The position numbers and the translations under genes are program-made. Source: a virus (lineage: Duplodnaviria; Heunggongvirae; Uroviricota; Caudoviricetes). From it: a stretch of 11,959 nt of DNA. The notes under the pieces were generated by a model that did no database searches, had not been told where the DNA came from, and saw nothing but the letters and a program-made list of their open reading frames with translations. Positions 1 through 10,882 of this stretch are shown here, piece after piece (positions within the stretch are counted from its first letter, which is position 1; each line of letters begins with the position of its first letter). The stretch lies in IMG/VR virus record IMGVR_UViG_648276647_000018. The stretch is one strand, 5' to 3'.

Positions 1-1212
1 GTGGCAAGAACGACACGCCCCCTGACCAACACAGAAGTTCTGCGCGCTAAAGCGTTAGAAAAGGATCTAACGTTACATGATGGCGATGGCCTTTTTCTGC
101 TCGTTAAAACGAACAGTAAGAAGTTGTGGCGTTTCCGTTATCAACGTCCAGCAACAAAACAGCGGACAATGATGGGGCTTGGTGCTTTCCCCGCCCTTTC
201 ACTTGCTGATGCTCGACGGTTAAGAGCGGATTACCTTGCTTTGTTGGCTAATGGTATAGACCCACAAGTTCAAGCTGAATTTATCGAAGAACAACAACAG
301 ATAGCTCTAGACAGTATTTTTTCGACTGTTGCGACCAACTGGTTCCAGATAAAAAGCAAAAGCGTTACCCCTGATTACGCTAAAGATATATGGCGCTCAC
401 TGGAAAAAGACGTATTCCCTGCCATCGGGGAGATTCCTGTCCAGCAAATAAAAGCCCGAACACTAGTTGAAGCCCTTGAGCCAATCAAAGCTCGTGGAGC
501 ACTCGAGACAGTGCGCCGACTTGTACAGCGCATTAACGAGATAATGATTTATGCCGTAAACACTGGTCTGATTGATGCCAATCCAGCATCAGGTGTTGGG
601 ATGGCCTTTGAAAAGCCCAGAAAACAAAACATGCCGACGCTGAGGCCAGAAGAATTACCAAAGCTGATGCGTTCTTTGTTCATGTCAAATCTGTCTGTTC
701 CGACTCGCTGTCTCATTGAATGGCAGCTTCTGACTCTAGTGCGTCCTGCTGAAGCTTCCGGTGCTCGATGGGCAGAGATCGATCTCGATGCAAAGCTCTG
801 GATGATTCCAGCCGAACGGATGAAGGCCAAACGAGAGCACATAGTTCCTTTATCCACGCAGGCATTAGAAATTCTAGAAGTGATGCAACCTATTAGCGCA
901 CATCGTGAGCATGTTTTCCCAAGCAGAAATGACCCTAAACAACCAATGAATAGCCAGACTGCGAATGCCGCGCTTAAGCGCATTGGTTATGGTGGGAAGC
1001 TTGTTGCTCATGGATTACGTTCTATAGCAAGTACAGCACTAAATGAAGCTGGTTTTAATCCGGACGTAATTGAAGCGGCACTTGCTCACAGTGATAAAAA
1101 TGAAGTTCGAAGAGCATACAATCGTTCAACTTACCTTGAACAACGTATAGACTTGATGAATTGGTGGGGTGAATTTGTGCACAACCGCCACCGCCTCATG
1201 CAAGCGATTTAA
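1..1212 (+). CDS. int: P4-type tyrosine integrase. The N-terminus is at or just beyond the window edge (GTG at position 1).
   Basis: The ORF is 403 aa. The N-terminal region (LTNTEV..., DGDGLFLLVKTNSKKLWRFRYQRP) is typical of P4/CP4-57-like integrases. The C-terminus carries HGLRS, LAHS and RRAYNRSTY, the catalytic R-H-R-Y signature of tyrosine recombinases. Confidence 0.9.
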   Translation: MARTTRPLTNTEVLRAKALEKDLTLHDGDGLFLLVKTNSKKLWRFRYQRPATKQRTMMGLGAFPALSLADARRLRADYLALLANGIDPQVQAEFIEEQQQIALDSIFSTVATNWFQIKSKSVTPDYAKDIWRSLEKDVFPAIGEIPVQQIKARTLVEALEPIKARGALETVRRLVQRINEIMIYAVNTGLIDANPASGVGMAFEKPRKQNMPTLRPEELPKLMRSLFMSNLSVPTRCLIEWQLLTLVRPAEASGARWAEIDLDAKLWMIPAERMKAKREHIVPLSTQALEILEVMQPISAHREHVFPSRNDPKQPMNSQTANAALKRIGYGGKLVAHGLRSIASTALNEAGFNPDVIEAALAHSDKNEVRRAYNRSTYLEQRIDLMNWWGEFVHNRHRLMQAI

Positions 1213-1239
1213 TAAGATTGCACAGCAAAGGAGTCTTAA

Positions 1240-2598
1240 ATGCCAAATAACTACCATCAATACATCGAAGACGTTAGTGATGATATAAAGACATGTCTTG
1301 AAGGAATGGGATGCCAACCCATACTTTTTGTTGGATCGGGATTAACCAAGAGATATCTTTCTGGCCCAAACTGGGAAGAACTTCTTCAGCAACTTGCTAA
1401 TGAATGTCCTAACATCGATAAAAGATTTGCCTATTATAAACAGAAATACCCCGAGTTGATTGATATCGGCAGTGTATTTTCTGATTCTTATAACGAGTGG
1501 GCATGGGGTGATGGAGAGAAAGAATTTCCAGCAGAGTTATTTGATGCAGGCAATGAGCCAAGTATTTATTTTAAATACAAAGTATCTAGTATTTTCAACT
1601 CATTGTTACAAGAAAAAGAAATCGTAAACAACGGTGAAATTGAACTTCTGAGAAAGATTCACCCTCATTCAATCATCACAACAAATTACGACAAATTACT
1701 TGAATCGATATATCCTGAGTTTACCCCCATTATAGGCCAAAAAATCCTTTACGCTAATCACGGTAGCATTGGTGAAATACTTAAAATACATGGTTGCTGC
1801 TCCACTCCTGAAAGCATAATAATAAACCGCGATGACTACGATGACTTCATAAAGAAGAAGAAATATTTAAGCGCAAAACTGCTTACTTTCTTTGCTGAAC
1901 ACCCTCTTCTATTTATAGGTTACAGCGCAGAAGACTCGAACATAAAAAACATACTATCTGATATTGATGAACTACTTTCAGAAAATGGAGATGTCATTCC
2001 AAATATATACATTTTAGAATGGACGAGCAAACAAAATGAAAGTGAATACCCACGCCGTGAACGGCTGATTCAAGTATCTGCAAACAAAAGCATTAGAATA
2101 AAAAGTATAGTAGCAAATGACTTCTCTTGGGTATTTTCAGCGTTTGGCGCGAACAGAGCACTTGATAACATAAATCCCAAATTATTGAGGGCACTTTTAG
2201 CTCGCACTTACGATCTCGTCAGAACTGATATACCTCGCAATCCTGTCCAAGTTGATTACCGAGTTTTATCAAGCATTAGCGAGTCAGAAGGTGAATTAGC
2301 GAAATTATATGGTATCGCCACATCGTCAGATGGTATGGCATTTAATGCCAGTTATCCTTTTACTTTAACCACGCTAGGGCAATCACTTGGTTTCAAAGGC
2401 TGGCATGATGCGAACAAACTATTAGAAGTAGTTAAAAACATCACGAACGTAGACATCAAGACATTCGATAACAAATACCACTATGCAATAATGAACGGTG
2501 ATGAGATTCAGTCCCATAGATATTCAAACTATCTTCGAGAACTCCTCGAAAAGGTTAGGGATGGAGAGGAGTTTGAGTTAGGAATAAAGGCTCCATAA
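1240..2598 (+). CDS. SIR2-like (sirtuin-fold, SIR2_2-type) protein, 452 aa, with a C-terminal domain of unknown function; candidate single-gene anti-phage effector.
   Basis: Strong SD (AAGGAG) 6 nt upstream of the ATG. Motifs: PILFVGSGLTKRYL (Rossmann Gly-rich loop, aa 27-40), IITTNYDKLLE (putative catalytic Asn149, codon 1684-1686), ILKIHGC (putative catalytic His184, codon 1789-1791) and LLFIGYSAEDSNI. The gene is clearly more AT-rich than the GC-rich P4 backbone. It lies between int and cos. Confidence 0.85.
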   Translation: MPNNYHQYIEDVSDDIKTCLEGMGCQPILFVGSGLTKRYLSGPNWEELLQQLANECPNIDKRFAYYKQKYPELIDIGSVFSDSYNEWAWGDGEKEFPAELFDAGNEPSIYFKYKVSSIFNSLLQEKEIVNNGEIELLRKIHPHSIITTNYDKLLESIYPEFTPIIGQKILYANHGSIGEILKIHGCCSTPESIIINRDDYDDFIKKKKYLSAKLLTFFAEHPLLFIGYSAEDSNIKNILSDIDELLSENGDVIPNIYILEWTSKQNESEYPRRERLIQVSANKSIRIKSIVANDFSWVFSAFGANRALDNINPKLLRALLARTYDLVRTDIPRNPVQVDYRVLSSISESEGELAKLYGIATSSDGMAFNASYPFTLTTLGQSLGFKGWHDANKLLEVVKNITNVDIKTFDNKYHYAIMNGDEIQSHRYSNYLRELLEKVRDGEEFELGIKAP

Positions 2599-2626
2599 TT
2601 ATTCATATAGCCTTACTACTTTTTAT

Positions 2627-2650
2627 GGCCGCTTTAATAGCGGCTTTTTC
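2627..2650 (+). terminator. Rho-independent terminator downstream of the SIR2-like gene.
   Basis: Stem ggccgct (2627-2633), loop ttaat, stem agcggc (2639-2644), then TTTTT (2645-2649). Confidence 0.5.
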
Positions 2651-2785
2651 ACAGCATTATTCATGCTTCTAGCACGATATGATGAACCGCAATAATCATA
2701 GCTAACAGGATTAATTTAAAGCATTACTCCTCGACTGAAGCGTGCTGTCATGCGAAAAAAATTTAAACTACCACGTTAGCGCGCA

Positions 2786-2804
2786 GTGCTTTCCCCGCCT
2801 CGCC
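2786..2804. other. cos site: 19-nt P2/P4 cohesive-end sequence.
   Basis: gtgctttccccgcctcgcc is the exact reverse complement of the P2/P4 cohesive end GGCGAGGCGGGGAAAGCAC as I recall it. Confidence 0.7.
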
Positions 2805-2906
2805 CGCACGCTTTGCGGGGCGGTTTTAATGCAGTTGCACTGACACGCTCAGACCGCGCCGGGAATGGCGCGGTCTGCAGAAAATGAGGCAGGGAAACGC
2901 ATGCAA

Positions 2907-2939
2907 AGCCATGCACCTTATCGATGCATGGCTTTTTTC
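2907..2939. terminator. Hairpin with T-run between cos and the psu stop; possible terminator, strand uncertain.
   Basis: Stem agccatgca (2907-2915) and tgcatggct (2925-2933), followed by TTTTTT (2934-2939) on the plus strand. A second inverted repeat gaccgcgcc/ggcgcggtc lies at 2852-2875. Confidence 0.4.
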
Positions 2940-2968
2940 AGTAAAAACAGGCGGATTTTCGGGAAATT

Positions 2969-3541
2969 TTACACAGACTGACGTGATGCCAGTTGCGCAC
3001 TTTTACGCGAAAAAATCATGTTCTGCGCAGGGGTGAATTTTTCACGGCTGTCGTCCACCGAAGCCGCGTCAGGCCTGAATCCGATGGTCGTTAAAATGTC
3101 GCTATCCTGTGCGGAATAATTAATTTTTTCCCCCTTCGCAAGCCAGGACAGAAGGGCTTCACGCAGGGCATCTGTGGCACGCTGTATGGCACAGTTTCGG
3201 GCAATGGCCGTCAGCTCACTGTAGCCCATCAGCTCCGGTGCCAGTGCCGCCGCCAGTGCTGTGCCGTGCTGCTGCATAAAATCATTCAGCCGGTCGCGGA
3301 TGCTGATGTGCTGAACGGCTTCATGCGAACGAATATAACGACCGGCGGCCTGATTCACCTGCCATTTTCTGACTTCGATAATATTGCGTAATTCGTCCAG
3401 GCGACTGACGTTTCTGCCTTCTCCTGACAGAAGCCGCAGGTATTCCTGTTCGGCCGCTGCCAGCTCATTTTTGCGTTGCAGCCATGCTGCTTTGTTATTC
3501 TGACAGGTGTCAAAGGCCTGCTGTAAGGCTGTGCTTTCCAT
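2969..3541 (-). CDS. psu: Psu, polarity suppression / capsid decoration protein.
   Basis: 190 aa. The translation MESTALQQAFDTCQNNKAAWLQRKNELAAAEQEYLRLL... matches P4 Psu in sequence and length as I recall it. It is the last gene of the sid-delta-psu operon, read toward cos. Confidence 0.9.
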   Translation of the reverse strand: MESTALQQAFDTCQNNKAAWLQRKNELAAAEQEYLRLLSGEGRNVSRLDELRNIIEVRKWQVNQAAGRYIRSHEAVQHISIRDRLNDFMQQHGTALAAALAPELMGYSELTAIARNCAIQRATDALREALLSWLAKGEKINYSAQDSDILTTIGFRPDAASVDDSREKFTPAQNMIFSRKSAQLASRQSV

Positions 3542-3614: not shown

Positions 3615-4115
3615 TCATTCCAGACGCAGCGAATATGATTGTGTTTTTAACCGTACTGGCGGCAGTTCCTGTTTTTCATGCAGGCGTTCTGCCAGTTCGT
3701 CCGGCGTGACCGGGCGGACAATGAAGCGGGTGATGGTCTGAAGCGTTTTAAACACCAGACCACAGCCCGGATCCGTGCACACATAAAAACGCTCGGTGAC
3801 TTCCTGAGACAGACCCCGCGATGTTCTTGACAGCGCAAGGCCTTTACATCTCCGACAACAATATCCGGTAACAAGCATTCTTTTCGGGCGCTTCATGCTG
3901 CCGGAGGCTGACGTCAGTGAATCGCGGTATCTCTGTTTGCCTGAAATGTATTCCATTCCTGAATCTTTACAGTCAGAGAAAAAGCTTTCACTCGCTTCAA
4001 ATGTCGCAGAGCAATAAATATTCCGGCACTGTGCAATCATTATCTTGGTGCCATCGTCCATGAAATGTGCGCGACGGGTGTGAGCAACATGTCCACACGA
4101 CGGGCAGTAAATCAT
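3615..4115 (-). CDS. delta: Delta, Ogr/Delta-family zinc-finger late-gene transactivator.
   Basis: 166 aa starting at MIYCPSCGHVAHTRRAHFMDDGTKIMIAQCRNIYCSATFEASESFF, with a second Ogr-like module (YVCTDPGCGLVFKT). The start is the ATG at 4113-4115 with an AGGA SD. The longer 185-aa ORF in the track is an in-frame upstream extension. Confidence 0.85.
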   Translation of the reverse strand: MIYCPSCGHVAHTRRAHFMDDGTKIMIAQCRNIYCSATFEASESFFSDCKDSGMEYISGKQRYRDSLTSASGSMKRPKRMLVTGYCCRRCKGLALSRTSRGLSQEVTERFYVCTDPGCGLVFKTLQTITRFIVRPVTPDELAERLHEKQELPPVRLKTQSYSLRLE

Positions 4116-4846
4116 GACAGCAGTCCTCTGGCCTTCAGCTCTGCTCCCTGCTGGTCTATTTTGTCCTGCCACACCTTGCGCTGTGCCGGTGTGCCTGCCA
4201 CCTCATAATCCATGTGCGGGAGTGTTGCCGCTGACAGTCCGGTCAGCCGGAGAACCGGCTCGCCGGTGAGGCTGATTTGCATCTGTTTAATTTTCTGTTC
4301 CAGCGATGATTTCACCTGCTGCATGACAGCCTTTTCCGGTGCGACGTAGCCCTGATGGCCGGTGGTGTTGGCGAGCGGATTTTCCTGTACCAGAATGCTC
4401 AGATGCATTGCCCGGACAAGCGCCTCACAGGTTTCATTCAGGGCGTGTTCCAGCTCATGCTCTGCATACAGACTCAGAAGGTGATGATGTGCCTTCCGGT
4501 AGGCGGTGGCCGTGCTGTCACACGCCCCTTTCAGGCGTTCACGTTCGAAATTCAGCACCACGGCCAGATTGTCATATTCCTGTACCAGCTCCCGGCGTGC
4601 CACGCGCTCAATGTGGCGCTGTTTCAGCTCGTCGCTCAGGACACCACCGGCTGCACGAAAGGCCGTGCGCCAGTCGTCAGCGTCATTTCCGTCGGCCTGC
4701 GTCAGCGCATTTTTTTCCTGCTCTGCCCGTTCAATGGCCGTGACGGTCTCATCCATCAGGCGGGCGTTCTCAAGATGAGCGGCTCTGGCCTTTTCCAGTT
4801 GTGCCAGTGCGGGTTGCAGATATTCAGGGATGGTGTTGTCAGACAT
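4112..4846 (-). CDS. sid: Sid, capsid size-determination (external scaffold) protein.
   Basis: 244 aa starting at MSDNTIPEYLQPALAQLEKARAAHLENARL with a GAGGAG SD upstream. The stop at 4112-4114 overlaps the delta ATG (ATGA overlap). The 266-aa ORF in the track is an upstream extension. Confidence 0.85.
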   Translation of the reverse strand: MSDNTIPEYLQPALAQLEKARAAHLENARLMDETVTAIERAEQEKNALTQADGNDADDWRTAFRAAGGVLSDELKQRHIERVARRELVQEYDNLAVVLNFERERLKGACDSTATAYRKAHHHLLSLYAEHELEHALNETCEALVRAMHLSILVQENPLANTTGHQGYVAPEKAVMQQVKSSLEQKIKQMQISLTGEPVLRLTGLSAATLPHMDYEVAGTPAQRKVWQDKIDQQGAELKARGLLS

Positions 4847-5120: not shown

Positions 5121-5169
5121 GTTGATGGGCTTTTTGTGCTGTTTATTACTTTTTATTTTTATTAATTCA

Positions 5170-5215
5170 CTGAAATAAATAAGAAAAAACAATTTGTATT
5201 TCACTATAATTTTTT
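5170..5215 (+). promoter_or_regulatory. Possible constitutive early promoter (PLE-like) for the vis-to-alpha operon.
   Basis: Perfect TATAAT at 5205-5210 in an AT-rich tract. I could not pick out a good -35 at 17-bp spacing. Confidence 0.25.
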
Positions 5216-5397
5216 CCAGCTCCTTCCAGAGCGTTTTAAAGCTATCTGGCGCTGATGTACAAAAAATGCACAGCCATTGTAAGGCTGCCGGAACAAATCC
5301 CCCCTGTTGCGTCTGCTGAAAATATTCACAAAATAAAGCGCTACCCGAAGCCGGACGGACTTATCCGGTGCTGTATGGACATTAACGAGGTAGCCCG

Positions 5398-5664
5398 ATG
5401 CAAGCTGTTTTTTCTTCCCCGTCTCCCGCCCCTGTTACGCCACTGATGCCGCTGCCGGACATCACGCAGGAGCGTTTTTTACGTCTGCCGGAAGTGATGC
5501 ACCTGTGCGGCCTGTCACGCTCGACCATCTATGAACTCATCCGTAAGGGGGAATTTCCGCCGCAGGTGAGTCTTGGCGGTAAAAATGTGGCCTGGCTGCA
5601 CTCTGAAGTCACCGCATGGATGGCCGGGCGCATTGCCGGACGCAAACGGGGGTACGACGCATGA
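5398..5664 (+). CDS. vis: AlpA/Vis-family helix-turn-helix regulator (excision and late-gene control).
   Basis: 88 aa with a GAGG SD 7 nt upstream. The core [48 protein letters not shown] is the classic AlpA/Vis HTH. Confidence 0.8.
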
Positions 5665-5756
5665 TGATGCCCGCTCTGCAAAAAGTCCCTTTTTCTGGCT
5701 TGCCTTTTTCCGGCATTTGCGGATATAGTTTTTCCGCTGCCGCAAAATCGGCAGCC

Positions 5757-6047
5757 GGGCGTAGGAACCCGTGTAACTCGAAGGCGACATATGACGCGCC
5801 ATGCGTCTTTTTTTGTGTCGCAATCAACGCCACAGAGCGCCAGATTATGGTGTGGCGTGTGGTTTGCCGTGCAGGTATGATCCTGTTCGCAATCGCATGT
5901 TATGCCACTGAGTCAATGGTAGCTCAGGCGGGGCAGCCTCCGGGCTGGCCGGTATTCTTCGAGGCCGGTATTCCTACCCCCGTCTGGGCTATCGCCATCG
6001 AGCGTAGGAACTCCGGCGATAGCAGTTATTTGCTACTCGAAGGAGAC
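5757..6047 (+). promoter_or_regulatory. CI-RNA-type immunity region: seqA-like and seqC-like direct repeats flanking a complementary seqB-like element.
   Basis: gcgtaggaac...ctcgaagg occurs at 5759-5784 and again at 6002-6043. Between them, cttcgag (5957-5963) and ttcctac (5971-5977) are the antiparallel complements of both halves. A 9-bp inverted repeat gctatcgcc/ggcgatagc lies at 5978-6023. Confidence 0.45.
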
Positions 6048-6053
6048 TGCCTT

Positions 6054-6251
6054 ATGGCTACAACCCTTACCCCTTCACACCCTGAATTTGTCTTTGTGTT
6101 TGCGGCTGTCCGTCGCGCAGACCGTCATCCCCGTATCTGCATGCTTCGCACCGTCGCCGGTGATGAACGCAGCGCCCGCCGTTCCCTTGTCCGTGACTAT
6201 GTGCTCTCCCTTGCTGCCCGTCTGCCGGTGGTGGAGGTGTCCCGTGCGTAA
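6054..6251 (+). CDS. Hypothetical small early protein (65 aa).
   Basis: ATG with an AGGAGA SD 7 nt upstream. It is the 3' part of the long 5616-6251 reading frame, whose upstream portion overlaps vis and the immunity repeats and is probably non-coding. Confidence 0.45.
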
Positions 6252-6531
6252 TAAAAAAGCCCCTCAGACCGTCTCAGCACGTCATGACGCCCGTGAACAC
6301 CTCAGCATTGAGGCTTACCATAAGCTCAACCGCGCCAGCGCCGTATCCCAGTTTGTTGGGGGTGATTTGATTCACCGTGAACTCTCCGGCCTGCATCAGC
6401 TCTACATTCCGCATATTTTCAGCTACCTGAATGAAGATATTGATTTTGTGCTGAATGAGCTGAAAGCCAAAGGCCTGTGCCGCGATTTTCTCGCCCAGCA
6501 GAAAGACCGGGGAGACAGGACGCATGTTTGA
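6244..6531 (+). CDS. Hypothetical early protein (95 aa, GTG start); possibly epsilon-like by size and position.
   Basis: GTG preceded by GGAGGT at 5-nt spacing. The start overlaps the stop of the preceding ORF by 8 nt. The epsilon attribution is from uncertain memory of the P4 map. Confidence 0.5.
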
Positions 6532-6979
6532 TTTTCCCCAGCCCGGTGAGATTTACCGTTCTGCCGGTTTTCCCGATGTGGCCGTGGTCGGCATTCTGGA
6601 AGACGGTATTCCGTGGGAAATGCCGTACCGCTGCCCGGACATTGTCTGGAATCCGTACCGCCGTAAATTCAGTATCCTTGTGCGTATCCTCGCTGACGGG
6701 CGCACCACAGACATCCCGCTGGGGCGTTTTCTGCGGGAATTTACCTGTGACCGTCCTGACCTGTTCAGACGCAGCCCCGTAAACCGGCATGCGGTACTGA
6801 AAGAAATGGCCGGAGACCCGGAATTACAGAAATGGCGGGAGAAATATCTGGATATTTACCCGCAGGACCCTGTTCCGGTCAGCCGGGCGGCACCGGTGGC
6901 GCGGGAATGGCGGGAAATTCCCCGCACGGAGCCTGACCCGGAAATCACCCCGGATAACAGTTACCGCAATTATCTGTAA
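6524..6979 (+). CDS. Hypothetical protein (151 aa); size and position fit P4 orf151.
   Basis: The ATG overlaps the upstream stop (ATGTTTGA). Coding-like composition, same strand as alpha. Confidence 0.7.
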   Translation: MFDFPQPGEIYRSAGFPDVAVVGILEDGIPWEMPYRCPDIVWNPYRRKFSILVRILADGRTTDIPLGRFLREFTCDRPDLFRRSPVNRHAVLKEMAGDPELQKWREKYLDIYPQDPVPVSRAAPVAREWREIPRTEPDPEITPDNSYRNYL

Positions 6980-7114: not shown

Positions 7115-7435
7115 ATGACCCCCCCCTTACCGCCCGTCTTACGCGCAGCCCTTTACCGTCGCGCTGTCGCCTGTGCCTGGCTGACCGTGTGCGAACGTCA
7201 GCACCGCTACCCGCATCTCACCCTTGAATCACTGGAGGCTGCCATCGCCGCTGAGCTGGAAGGCTTTTATCTGCGCCAGCACGGTGAGGAAAAAGGGCGT
7301 CAGATAGCCTGTGCCCTGCTGGAAGATTTAATGGAATCCGGCCCCCTGAAGGCCGCGCCGTCGCTGTCCTTTCTCGGGCTGGTTGTGATGGATGAACTCT
7401 GTGCCCGTCACATAAAAGCGCCGGTACTGCACTGA
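7115..7435 (+). CDS. Hypothetical protein (106 aa) immediately upstream of alpha.
   Basis: GGGAGGAA SD 5 nt upstream of the ATG. It ends 14 nt before the alpha start. Confidence 0.7.
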
Positions 7436-7449
7436 AGGAGAACAACACC

Positions 7450-9783
7450 ATGAAAATGAACGTAACCGCCACCGTCAGCCATGCGCTCGGCCACTGGCCG
7501 CGTATTCTCCCGGCGCTGGGGATTCAGGTGCTGAAAAACCGTCATCAGCCCTGTCCGGTCTGTGGCGGGAGTGACCGCTTCCGTTTTGATGACAGGGAGG
7601 GGCGCGGCACCTGGTACTGCAATCAGTGTGGTGCCGGTGACGGCCTGAAACTGGTTGAAAAGGTGTTTGGTGTTTCCCCGTCCGATGCGGCCGCAAAGGT
7701 GGCTGCCGTGACCGGCAGCCTGCCCCCGGCTGACCCGGCAGTGACGGCTGCCGCCGGTGCTGAAACAGACGCTGCCCGGAAGAACGCCGCCGCACTGGCA
7801 CAAACCCTGATGGCGAAAACCCGTCCCGGAACCGGTAACGCCTACCTGACCCGCAAGGGCTTTCCCGGCCGGGAATGCCGGATGCTGACCGGCACACACA
7901 GAGCCGGTGGCGTGAGCTGGCGCGCCGGTGACCTTGTGGTGCCACTGTATGACGACAGCGGCGAACTGGTTAACCTTCAGTTAATCAGTGCTGACGGCCG
8001 TAAGCGCACCCTGAAAGGCGGACAGGTCAGGGGCACCTGTCACACCCTTGAAGGACAGAATCAGGCAGGAAAACGTCTGTGGATAGCGGAGGGATACGCG
8101 ACCGCACTTACCGTGCATCACCTGACCGGTGAAACGGTGATGGTGGCGCTTTCTTCCGTGAACCTCCTTTCTCTGGCCAGCCTTGCCCGACAGAAGTATC
8201 CGGCCTGTCAGATTGTCCTTGCCGCAGACCGTGACCTCAGCGGTGACGGCCAGACAAAAGCCGCCGCAGCCGCAGATGCGTGTGAGGGCGTTGTTGCCCT
8301 GCCGCCGGTCTTCGGTGACTGGAATGATGCCTTCACGCAGTACGGCGGGGAGGCCACCCGTAAGGCCATTTACGATGCCATCCGGCCACCGGCTGAAAGC
8401 CCGTTCGACACCATGAGCGAAGCGGAGTTTTCCGCCATGAGTACCAGCGAAAAGGCCATGCGTATCTATGAGCATTACGGCGAGGCGCTCGCGGTCGATG
8501 CCAACGGCCAGCTTCTGTCCCGTTATGAAAATGGTGTCTGGAAGGTGCTGCCACCACAGGACTTTGCCCGGGATGTGGCCGGGCTGTTTCAGCGTCTGCG
8601 CGCGCCGTTCTCCTCCGGGAAGGTGGCCTCCGTGGTGGACACCCTGAAGCTGATTATTCCGCAGCAGGAAGCCCCCTCCCGCCGCCTGATTGGCTTTCGT
8701 AACGGCGTGCTCGACACGCAGAACGGCACGTTCCACCCGCACAGTCCGTCACACTGGATGCGTACCCTGTGCGATGTGGATTTCACCCCGCCGGTGGAAG
8801 GGGAAACGCTGGAAACCCACGCCCCCGCGTTCTGGCGCTGGCTTGACCGTGCCGCCGGTGGCCGTGCGGAAAAACGCGACGTGATTCTGGCCGCACTGTT
8901 TATGGTGCTGGCAAACCGCTACGACTGGCAGCTCTTTCTGGAGGTGACCGGTCCCGGCGGCAGCGGCAAAAGTATCATGGCCGAAATAGCCACCCTGCTG
9001 GCCGGGGAGGATAACGCCACGTCGGCCACCATCGAGACGCTGGAATCCCCGCGTGAACGTGCCGCGTTAACTGGCTTCTCACTGATACGCCTGCCGGACC
9101 AGGAAAAATGGAGCGGCGACGGTGCCGGACTCAAGGCCATCACCGGCGGCGACGCGGTGTCCGTTGACCCGAAATACCGGGATGCGTACTCCACGCATAT
9201 CCCGGCGGTGATTCTGGCCGTGAACAATAACCCGATGCGCTTCACCGACCGCAGCGGCGGCGTGTCACGCCGGCGGGTGATTATTCACTTCCCGGAACAG
9301 ATAGCCCCGCAGGAGCGCGACCCGCAGCTTAAGGACAAAATCACCCGCGAGCTGGCGGTCATCGTGCGTCACCTGATGCAGAAGTTCAGCGACCCGATGC
9401 TCGCCCGGTCACTGCTTCAGTCCCAGCAGAACTCAGACGAGGCACTGAACATCAAACGGGATGCCGACCCGACGTTTGATTTTATCGGCTATCTGGAAAC
9501 CCTGCCGCAGACCAGCGGCATGTATATGGGGAACGCCAGTATCATCCCGCGTAATTACCGTAAATACCTCTATCACGCCTATCTGGCCTACATGGAGGCA
9601 AACGGCTACCGGAATGTACTCAGTCTGAAAATGTTCGGGCTGGGGCTGCCGGTGATGCTGAAGGAATACGGACTGAATTACGAGAAGCGCCATACCAAAC
9701 AGGGGATACAGACCAACCTGACGCTGAAAGAGGAAAGCTACGGCGACTGGCTGCCAAAATGTGACGACCCTGCAACAACCTGA
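7450..9783 (+). CDS. alpha: Alpha: bifunctional DNA primase / helicase with C-terminal iteron-binding domain.
   Basis: 777 aa with an AAGGAGA SD. N-terminal zinc ribbon (CPVCGGSDRFRFDD...WYCNQCG). TOPRIM-like motifs (IAEGYATALTV, LAADRD). Walker A GPGGSGKS (nt 8951-8974). The length matches P4 alpha. Confidence 0.95.
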   Translation: MKMNVTATVSHALGHWPRILPALGIQVLKNRHQPCPVCGGSDRFRFDDREGRGTWYCNQCGAGDGLKLVEKVFGVSPSDAAAKVAAVTGSLPPADPAVTAAAGAETDAARKNAAALAQTLMAKTRPGTGNAYLTRKGFPGRECRMLTGTHRAGGVSWRAGDLVVPLYDDSGELVNLQLISADGRKRTLKGGQVRGTCHTLEGQNQAGKRLWIAEGYATALTVHHLTGETVMVALSSVNLLSLASLARQKYPACQIVLAADRDLSGDGQTKAAAAADACEGVVALPPVFGDWNDAFTQYGGEATRKAIYDAIRPPAESPFDTMSEAEFSAMSTSEKAMRIYEHYGEALAVDANGQLLSRYENGVWKVLPPQDFARDVAGLFQRLRAPFSSGKVASVVDTLKLIIPQQEAPSRRLIGFRNGVLDTQNGTFHPHSPSHWMRTLCDVDFTPPVEGETLETHAPAFWRWLDRAAGGRAEKRDVILAALFMVLANRYDWQLFLEVTGPGGSGKSIMAEIATLLAGEDNATSATIETLESPRERAALTGFSLIRLPDQEKWSGDGAGLKAITGGDAVSVDPKYRDAYSTHIPAVILAVNNNPMRFTDRSGGVSRRRVIIHFPEQIAPQERDPQLKDKITRELAVIVRHLMQKFSDPMLARSLLQSQQNSDEALNIKRDADPTFDFIGYLETLPQTSGMYMGNASIIPRNYRKYLYHAYLAYMEANGYRNVLSLKMFGLGLPVMLKEYGLNYEKRHTKQGIQTNLTLKEESYGDWLPKCDDPATT

Positions 9784-9825: not shown

Positions 9826-9840
9826 TCCCTGAATTCCCCG

Positions 9841-10140
9841 AAGGTGAACAATCCACTGTTCACCCTTCACCGTATATTCACCCGTTATCACACTGAAATT
9901 AAAAGAGAAAAATGAAAGGTGAACAGTGTGAACAATCAAATCAAAAAAACTTTTTTTCTTCCGGTGTGATTTCAGCACGGGAAATTAATCCCCTGCACAA
10001 GTCACACCGGCAGAATGCCGGAGGTGAAGAATCGAATGTTCACCCTTCACCCATTATTCACCATCTATCACTCTGAAATAAAAGGAGAAAACAGAAAGGT
10101 GAACAGTGTGAACAGTTCTTTCGAAAAAAATTTTTTTTCC
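9841..10140. repeat. crr (cis replication region): two direct repeats of about 120 bp at a 180-bp period, each with TGTTCACC-type iterons.
   Basis: Repeat 1 (9841-9960) and repeat 2 (10021-10140) align almost base for base, with a 60-bp spacer between them. Each holds ggtgaaca / tgttcacc copies and ends in an A/T run. Confidence 0.75.
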
Positions 10141-10203
10141 TGTACGATATAGCATCAATCCAAGTAAAAATGCGCTTTCATTTCACATTAACTTCCAGCC
10201 ATT

Positions 10204-10296
10204 GGTATACGATTAGGTATACGCACAAAAAATGAATTAAACAAAATCATTAAAAATCAAAGCAATACAATATTTATTCAAACTCCGCCAGCCCAC
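10204..10296 (+). other. Candidate right attachment site (attR): tandem ggtatacg arm-type repeats followed by a degenerate copy of the ssrA (tmRNA) 3' end.
   Basis: ggtatacg occurs at 10204-10211 and 10217-10224. ttcaaactccgccagcccacca (about 10275-10296) resembles the ssrA 3' end (ttcaactcccgccagctccacca, from memory) with three indels. The left repeat is not in the window, so this cannot be confirmed. Confidence 0.3.
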
Positions 10297-10428
10297 CAAA
10301 TAATGATTGGACGGTGTAAGGACTACACCAACAAAAACAGGAAGTTATAAGTCTCAGCAGGACACCGACCAGACGGTGAGGAGACAAAAAAGGATACGCA
10401 ACGGAGTCGCGACTCCCTATGACATTAA

Positions 10429-10452
10429 AGCCCGCTGATGCGGGCTTTTTTA
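10429..10452 (+). terminator. Rho-independent terminator in the flank upstream of csiD.
   Basis: Stem aagcccgc, loop tgat, stem gcgggctt, then TTTTTT. A perfect palindrome ggagtcgcgactcc sits just upstream at 10403-10416. Confidence 0.5.
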
Positions 10453-10882
10453 TTGGTCCTGACCCGCCCTGAATAGAATTCATCCAATTACAGCCCAGAC
10501 ATATACAGTATCCCTCAGCTCAGTATCAGCTTCTCGACAAATGGTCACTGTTATTTACCCGTTGCCAGAAAGAGAATAATTTGCCCCCATAGCCAGCCTT
10601 CCCGGAATCTGTATATTCATTAATATTGTTATCGATTCCATCAAGTAACATAGGTTGGATGCGATTGATCTTACTCACATTAGTCGACACGGAACTCAGT
10701 AAGTCGAACTCTGGAAAAGCAGTTTAAATAGCATTTAAACAAATGCCACCAGTTCGAAAAAGAGTATAAGCACACTTAATATATTGTTTTAATTATTCAT
10801 TTCCTTTCAACCCAATTCTTATCCCTCACATTACTTGTTATTGATTTGTTGTTTTTGATCACAATAAGAAAACAATATGTAA

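Follow-up and report, generated by a model that had tools for sequence, protein, structure and literature searches.

A P2/P4-type cos Site beside the SIR2 Cargo of an ssrA-Integrated P4-like Satellite

Satellite P4 is packaged from covalently closed circles, which are cut at a 55-bp cos to yield 19-nt cohesive ends, into P2-derived capsids; both the 10-kb P4 del22 and cosmids of 5–8.7 kb have been packaged in this way (PMC2231350). The terminase that P4 uses is that of P2 (PMC9122126), and the cos core is described as the only stretch in which helper and satellite are homologous (PMC9122126, PMC9594776); the passages of PMC9594776 and PMC2231350 that cite Ziermann & Calendar (1990) put the length of cos at about 55 bp. 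Rousset et al. (2022, PMC9122126) published the neighbouring int–psu interval of P4 as a defence hotspot "adjacent to cos", which was taken up again in PMC8628076 and PMC13586616. The cos-adjacent hotspot, its prevalence, and the particular SIR2 cassette considered below are already published (PMC9122126, PMC8628076, PMC13586616), and current understanding is unchanged by the cos site that we describe. What is now given are base-level boundaries for cos, cargo, and att sites, together with a rare cos variant and an apparent linkage between int allele and cargo, both of which bear on how hotspot cassettes get swapped. The DNA examined (hereafter the window) is the whole stretch of 11,959 nt, and its features point to a complete and probably mobilisable P4-like satellite of ~10.5 kb, located at ssrA beside the Escherichia coli tmRNA gene.

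The cos 19-mer and its core

The 19-nt P2/P4 cohesive end, GGCGAGGCGGGGAAAGCAC, occurs in the window as a single exact copy on the minus strand, at 2786–2804, without any mismatch in a scan of the whole window on both strands. The preliminary description had placed its reverse complement at precisely these positions, and the coordinates proved right. Elsewhere in the window, a pattern scan found no second or partial copy with up to three mismatches. By arithmetic, an exact 19-mer is expected ~9e-8 times (roughly 1e-7) in 2 x 11,959 positions; dinucleotide-preserving shuffles gave a mean of 0.01 matches at ≤3 mismatches, with any match at all in 1 of 200 shuffles. A chance match was rejected on both grounds. 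The proposed identity with the P2/P4 cohesive end stood up equally well to database comparison, as GGCGAGGCGGGGAAAGCAC corresponds to bases 1–19 of P4 (NC_001609) and to the feature "cosL; left cohesive end" at 1–19 of P2 (NC_001895). In a megablast alignment, window 2805–10137 matches P4 11624–4291 in reverse orientation with 97% identity, and this homology stops at window 2805, opposite P4 11624, where the linear P4 record ends; P4 1–19 therefore follows as the adjoining 19 bases of the window, as on the circular map. Read along the minus strand, the junction is ...AAAACCGCCCCGCAAAGCGtGCG / GGCGAGGCGGGGAAAGCAC / tGCGCGCtAAC... in the window and ...AAAACCGCCCCGCAAAGCGGGCG / GGCGAGGCGGGGAAAGCAC / CGCGCGCAAAC... 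in P4. From the ends of the linear P4 and P2 records, staggered nicks are predicted at 2804/2805 on the minus strand and at 2785/2786 on the plus strand. The 19-mer lies 165 bp from the psu stop codon, at the junction between the end of the late operon (psu) and the non-essential region of the satellite. Its placement between cargo and psu, another point of the preliminary description, is borne out by the gene map, where the SIR2_2 gene occupies 1240–2598 on the plus strand and psu 2969–3541 on the minus strand.

We aligned ±170 bp around the 19-mer for the window, P4, a P2 assembly, and five ssrA-integrated sibling satellites. With the first base of the 19-mer numbered 0, the cos core common to P2-like helpers and P4-like satellites takes up columns −35 to +25, running from window 2839 down to 2779 (2779–2839, minus strand). 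Within this core, the window departs from P4 at two positions, −4 (G>T) and +19 (C>T), and from P2 at three (−12, −10, and −4), with 59 of the 62 positions from −35 to +26 identical to P2; the T at +19 is the majority state among satellites and also the P2 state. Outside the core, resemblance depends on the system compared. The P4 cos (NC_001609 / X51522) has the identical 19-mer, a psu-side flank ~98% identical for >170 bp, the same location, with psu to one side and the non-essential, int-adjoining region to the other, and a core kept through +25; yet past about +26 to +30 the sequences are unrelated, because the P4 genes gop-beta-cII are replaced in the window by a single SIR2_2 gene. The cos of P2 and P2-like Peduoviridae (NC_001895 cosL; fiAA91-ss cosR) also has the identical 19-mer, but nothing is common outside the core, where one flank in P2 is occupied by the portal gene Q and the opposite flank by a gpA-Q hotspot of its own.

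To place these differences in a wider sample, IMG/VR was scanned with a pattern made of the 19-mer and eight flanking positions, which yielded at least 148 sites (47 satellites and 101 P2-like). Among the matches listed, satellites and P2-like sites alike share the core; YGCGCRY is retained at +19 to +25 in the 47 satellites, whose sequences are unrelated from +26 on, while columns −13 to −7 read CAYGAAG in P2-like sites and CGCAAAG in satellites. The substitution at −4 (window 2808; T for G, or A for C on the plus strand), four bases outside the nick, is a rare variant of the core: among the matches listed, −4 is G in 101/101 P2-like and 45/47 P4-like sites, in a census whose pattern held −8 to −5 and −3 to −1 fixed, variation at those columns being invisible to it. 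The only listed sites with T are L047 and L050, the latter with the same cargo-side sequence as the window and the former with a different one. Of 5426 complete E. coli genomes, 2422 contain the 63-nt core, and the exact 63-nt variant of the window was found in 6 of the 2427 matching E. coli records. Judged by its sequence, the cos core is intact, with one rare substitution near the nick. Folded as single-stranded DNA, it does no better than shuffles (z = −0.7 for the window, −0.6 for P2), with no sign of a hairpin or cruciform in the core; cos therefore looks like a duplex protein-recognition sequence and not a structured element. A consensus terminator scan flagged two weak sites overlapping the core, which we regard as not meaningful.

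Satellite backbone and integration site

The gene order of the element is int, cargo, cos, psu-delta-sid, immunity RNAs, epsilon, alpha, crr, and attR, followed by host glaH. At the left, int (1–1212, plus strand) encodes an ssrA-specific tyrosine integrase with the Pfam domains Arm-DNA-bind_3, Phage_int_M, and Phage_integrase (arm-binding, central, and catalytic, respectively); it is 35% identical to P4 Int (BLASTP) and, unlike the latter, targets ssrA and not the P4 attachment site. Between cos and the psu stop, two hairpins can be read at 2852–2933 (minus strand), which are shared with P4, are kept in all siblings, and are presumably the late-operon terminators. The late genes, all on the minus strand, are psu, for polarity suppression and capsid decoration (Pfam Psu E=1e-88; 99.5% aa identity to P4 Psu), delta, an Ogr/Delta late-gene activator (3615–4115; 97.0%), and sid, the capsid size determination scaffold (4112–4846; 99.2%), each matching its P4 counterpart over the full length. 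On the plus strand follow orf88, a vis-alpA-type HTH regulator (5398–5664; 98.9% aa identity to P4 ORF88), the immunity RNA region (5723–5999), where the C4/CI antisense RNA, the a1b1 targets, and an isrK match score above the Rfam gathering score, epsilon, for helper derepression (6244–6531; 98.9% to P4 Epsilon), orf151 (6524–6979; 98.0% to P4), orf106 (7115–7435; 98.1% to P4), and the primase-helicase gene alpha (7450–9783; 99.0% to P4 Alpha over 776 aa). They end with crr, two ~120-bp direct repeats at 9838–10137 (plus strand) homologous to P4 4291–4590, annotated as crr. Host glaH/csiD (Pfam CsiD) runs from 10982 to the window end on the plus strand. In tblastn searches with P4 proteins, psu, delta, sid, orf88, epsilon, orf151, orf106, and alpha are full length at 97–99% aa identity, with no pseudogene among the satellite genes, and nothing in the window corresponds to gop, beta, or cII of P4. 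Neither the ORF list nor the RefSeq annotation of the sibling locus contains capsid, tail, or terminase genes in the element. The set and canonical order of int, psu, delta, sid, alpA, epsilon, and alpha, with att sites next to int and alpha and a size in the ~10–11 kb range, are those of the Type A P4-like satellites defined in PMC8628076.

Against a backbone otherwise ~97–99% identical to P4, identity dips to 70–83% at 5136–5334 and 5835–5975. The former dip covers the ori type-2 repeat area, and the latter the CI/C4 immunity RNA, where a 9-bp deletion occurs at 5877 and the historical "cI ORF137" is 82% identical in aa. The two dips suggest an immunity specificity differing from that of P4, and perhaps a different origin specificity as well. 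The Rfam match to isrK, an Hfq-binding sRNA, lies at 5736–5813 (72 bits), overlapping the c4-a1b1 target match and just upstream of the C4 antisense RNA (5912–5999), consistent with the P4 immunity leader; members of the isrK family are evidently P4-like immunity-region transcripts. Directly after the alpha stop, in the terminator region before crr, the window has a 9-bp insertion relative to P4 (9786–9794).

The integration target lies just outside the window. In AP021894, a RefSeq sibling, int starts at the codon corresponding to window base 1, and there, as in the sibling locus L003, an intact ssrA ends 184 nt upstream of int. ARAGORN detected no tRNA or tmRNA gene inside the window, where only a degenerate ssrA 3' fragment is present, at attR, and an integration-target gene within the window was rejected. 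This attR (10201–10292, plus strand), recognised by words shared with the attL side of L003, comprises integrase arm-type repeats, ATTGGTATACGNTTAGGTATACG, found on both att sides and located in the window at 10201–10223, and an 8-bp common core, CCGCCAGC, at 10285–10292, within the degenerate copy of the ssrA 3' end; identity between attL and attR is limited to the core and the arm repeats. Recombination between them is predicted to release a circle of ~10,483 bp, 90% of the size of P4, which falls within the packageable range since the 10-kb P4 del22 and the 5–8.7 kb cosmids are packaged. Past the attR core, the stretch 10277–10457 includes a degenerate copy of the ssrA 3' end (TTCAAACTCCGCCAGCCCACCA), has a hairpin resembling a terminator (10427–10451), and shows ~85% similarity to what phages LLS and Ayreon carry as a "tmRNA pseudogene / attP" region. 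Some neighbour genomes stay homologous to 10295 only and others as far as 10450, a pattern that suggests tandem att sites, or what is left of an older element that targeted ssrA.

Probable packaging of the element and the alternatives

Taken together, positions 2779–2839 are very probably the cos packaging site of an intact, ssrA-integrated P4-like satellite of ~10.5 kb. We infer on good grounds that packaging would be by a P2-family terminase, given the cos core, the intact set of helper-exploitation genes, the lack of structural and terminase genes, and the mechanism established for P2 and P4 (PMC2231350, PMC9122126); the T at −4, seen in none of the P2-like sites listed, is the one caveat. 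By analogy with the P2/P4 literature, excision, cleavage, and packaging of this element would begin with the integrase recombining attL and attR, so that the element leaves the chromosome as a circle, which Alpha would then replicate from ori/crr. A P2-type helper would provide capsid, tail, and terminase, while the satellite's own Sid and Psu would reshape the capsid, and Delta and Epsilon would control the helper late genes. The helper terminase would recognise the shared cos core, ~55–60 bp, on the closed circle and introduce staggered nicks around 2786–2804. Cutting would be expected to yield a linear molecule whose cohesive ends are 5' and 19 nt long. Its outermost "left" part would be the SIR2 cargo, with the 3' end of the SIR2 gene ~190 bp inside the left terminus of the virion DNA, and psu would occupy the "right" end. 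A single SIR2 cargo gene would in this manner travel in P2-type virions. More generally, since cos abuts the variable int–psu hotspot, any cargo inserted there would be packaged and moved with the satellite.

An alternative, which we judge unlikely but worth weighing, is that this cos is authentic by descent but inactive or crippled, the element being a domesticated, immobile island owing to the −4 G>T change, a degenerate attR, or the lack of a helper. In line with this reading, T at −4 appears in 0/101 P2-like sites and in just 2/47 satellites among the matches listed, the exact core variant is confined to 6 E. coli records, and the att sites share only the 8 bp and the arm repeats. Further, AP021894, the nearest complete genome with an identical cos core, has one cos-core match only and therefore no resident P2-like helper with this cos. 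Satellites, however, often lack a co-resident helper and depend on an incoming phage. Their helper dependence is discussed in PMC8628076. Other observations speak against a crippled site: the satellite genes are all intact at 97–99% aa identity to P4, which argues for ongoing selection for a satellite lifestyle, and the T at −4 stands beside two different cargo-side sequences (L047 and L050) and is also carried by SIR2-encoding elements whose strains come from bovine, soil, human, and bear sources, suggesting persistence and recombination. There is next to no probability that the 19-mer is a chance match, in view of the expectation and shuffles given above, or part of a P2-like helper prophage instead of a satellite, since, although P2-like phages carry the same 19-mer, nothing else favours such a prophage, no portal (Q) or gpA gene is nearby, and the flanking homology, which is satellite-specific on both sides (psu-delta-sid, 97% to P4 up to the junction, versus the int-linked hotspot), rules out a helper-prophage origin.

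Cargo and its exchange between int and cos

The cargo under discussion is a single gene (1240–2598) for a 452-aa protein with a SIR2_2 domain (Pfam E=4e-27), matching the PADLOC candidate PDC-S25 (E=2e-84) and weakly similar to the SIR2 domains of DSR2, ThsA, and KomC (PDB); this domain-level evidence makes it a candidate anti-phage gene. After the gene, a terminator-like GC-rich hairpin and T-run, which the consensus terminator scan did not report, can be read at 2628–2649 on the plus strand (GCCGC-TTTAATA-GCGGC, then TTTTT). The siblings L006–L009, at the same ssrA-glaH position, carry other genes here: an ABC-three-component (ABC-3C) system with DUF2326, a restriction endonuclease, an AAA ATPase together with an HNH nuclease, and hypotheticals. 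In BLAST comparisons with these four siblings, homology is lost at window ~1170–1185, within the final ~10–14 codons of int, and regained at ~2774–2780, about 6–12 bp past the 19-mer. The variable segment thus delimited agrees with the preliminary description, which had fixed the cargo in the int-cos interval. Differing cassettes at the same cos-adjacent position of near-identical backbones (L006–L009), in the order int, variable cargo, cos, and psu, are what is expected of the int–psu defence hotspot of Rousset et al. (2022; PMC9122126).

Identity among the siblings is distributed unevenly. It amounts to 95–100% from ssrA up to roughly nt 100 of int, falls to ~80–90% in the rest of int, where every sibling pair differs by 8–17%, and is ~98% in the backbone from cos onward. 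The int allele seems to travel with the cargo, so that the swapped module would effectively be most of int plus the cargo; a discordant integrase phylogeny was noted in PMC8628076, but not the local gradient of int identity. Considering the sharp breakpoint, only ~7 bp past the cohesive end in each satellite examined, and an int allele that is ~15% diverged among siblings and seems linked to the cargo, we tentatively raise the possibility, itself rather doubtful, that the cargo is swapped as a unit of the int 3' part plus cargo, by recombination that would start at a cos end, either cut by terminase or newly injected, and be resolved in the int 5' part or attP. If so, the −4 G>T change would represent a cos variant linked to cargo, and might alter cleavage efficiency or helper preference.

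The same cassette can be traced to the collection of Rousset et al. (2022). The insert of pFR88 ("SIR2", E. coli M605, GCA_000176555) equals window 1119–1517 over the part shown (399/399 nt), and the other (reverse) primer anneals at window 3071, the matching segment being 1119–3090; the window may originate from M605 or one of its close relatives. The plasmid is listed in Table S2B with the "additional tested systems", and the seven validated defence systems do not include it (Rousset et al. 2022, PMC9122126). WP_001133507, the SIR2_2 counterpart in a 98%-identical sibling locus, has at least 21 entries in Table S1A of that study. We find no substantive difference from the M605 pFR88 locus, and the window appears to be the same locus or a near-identical copy.
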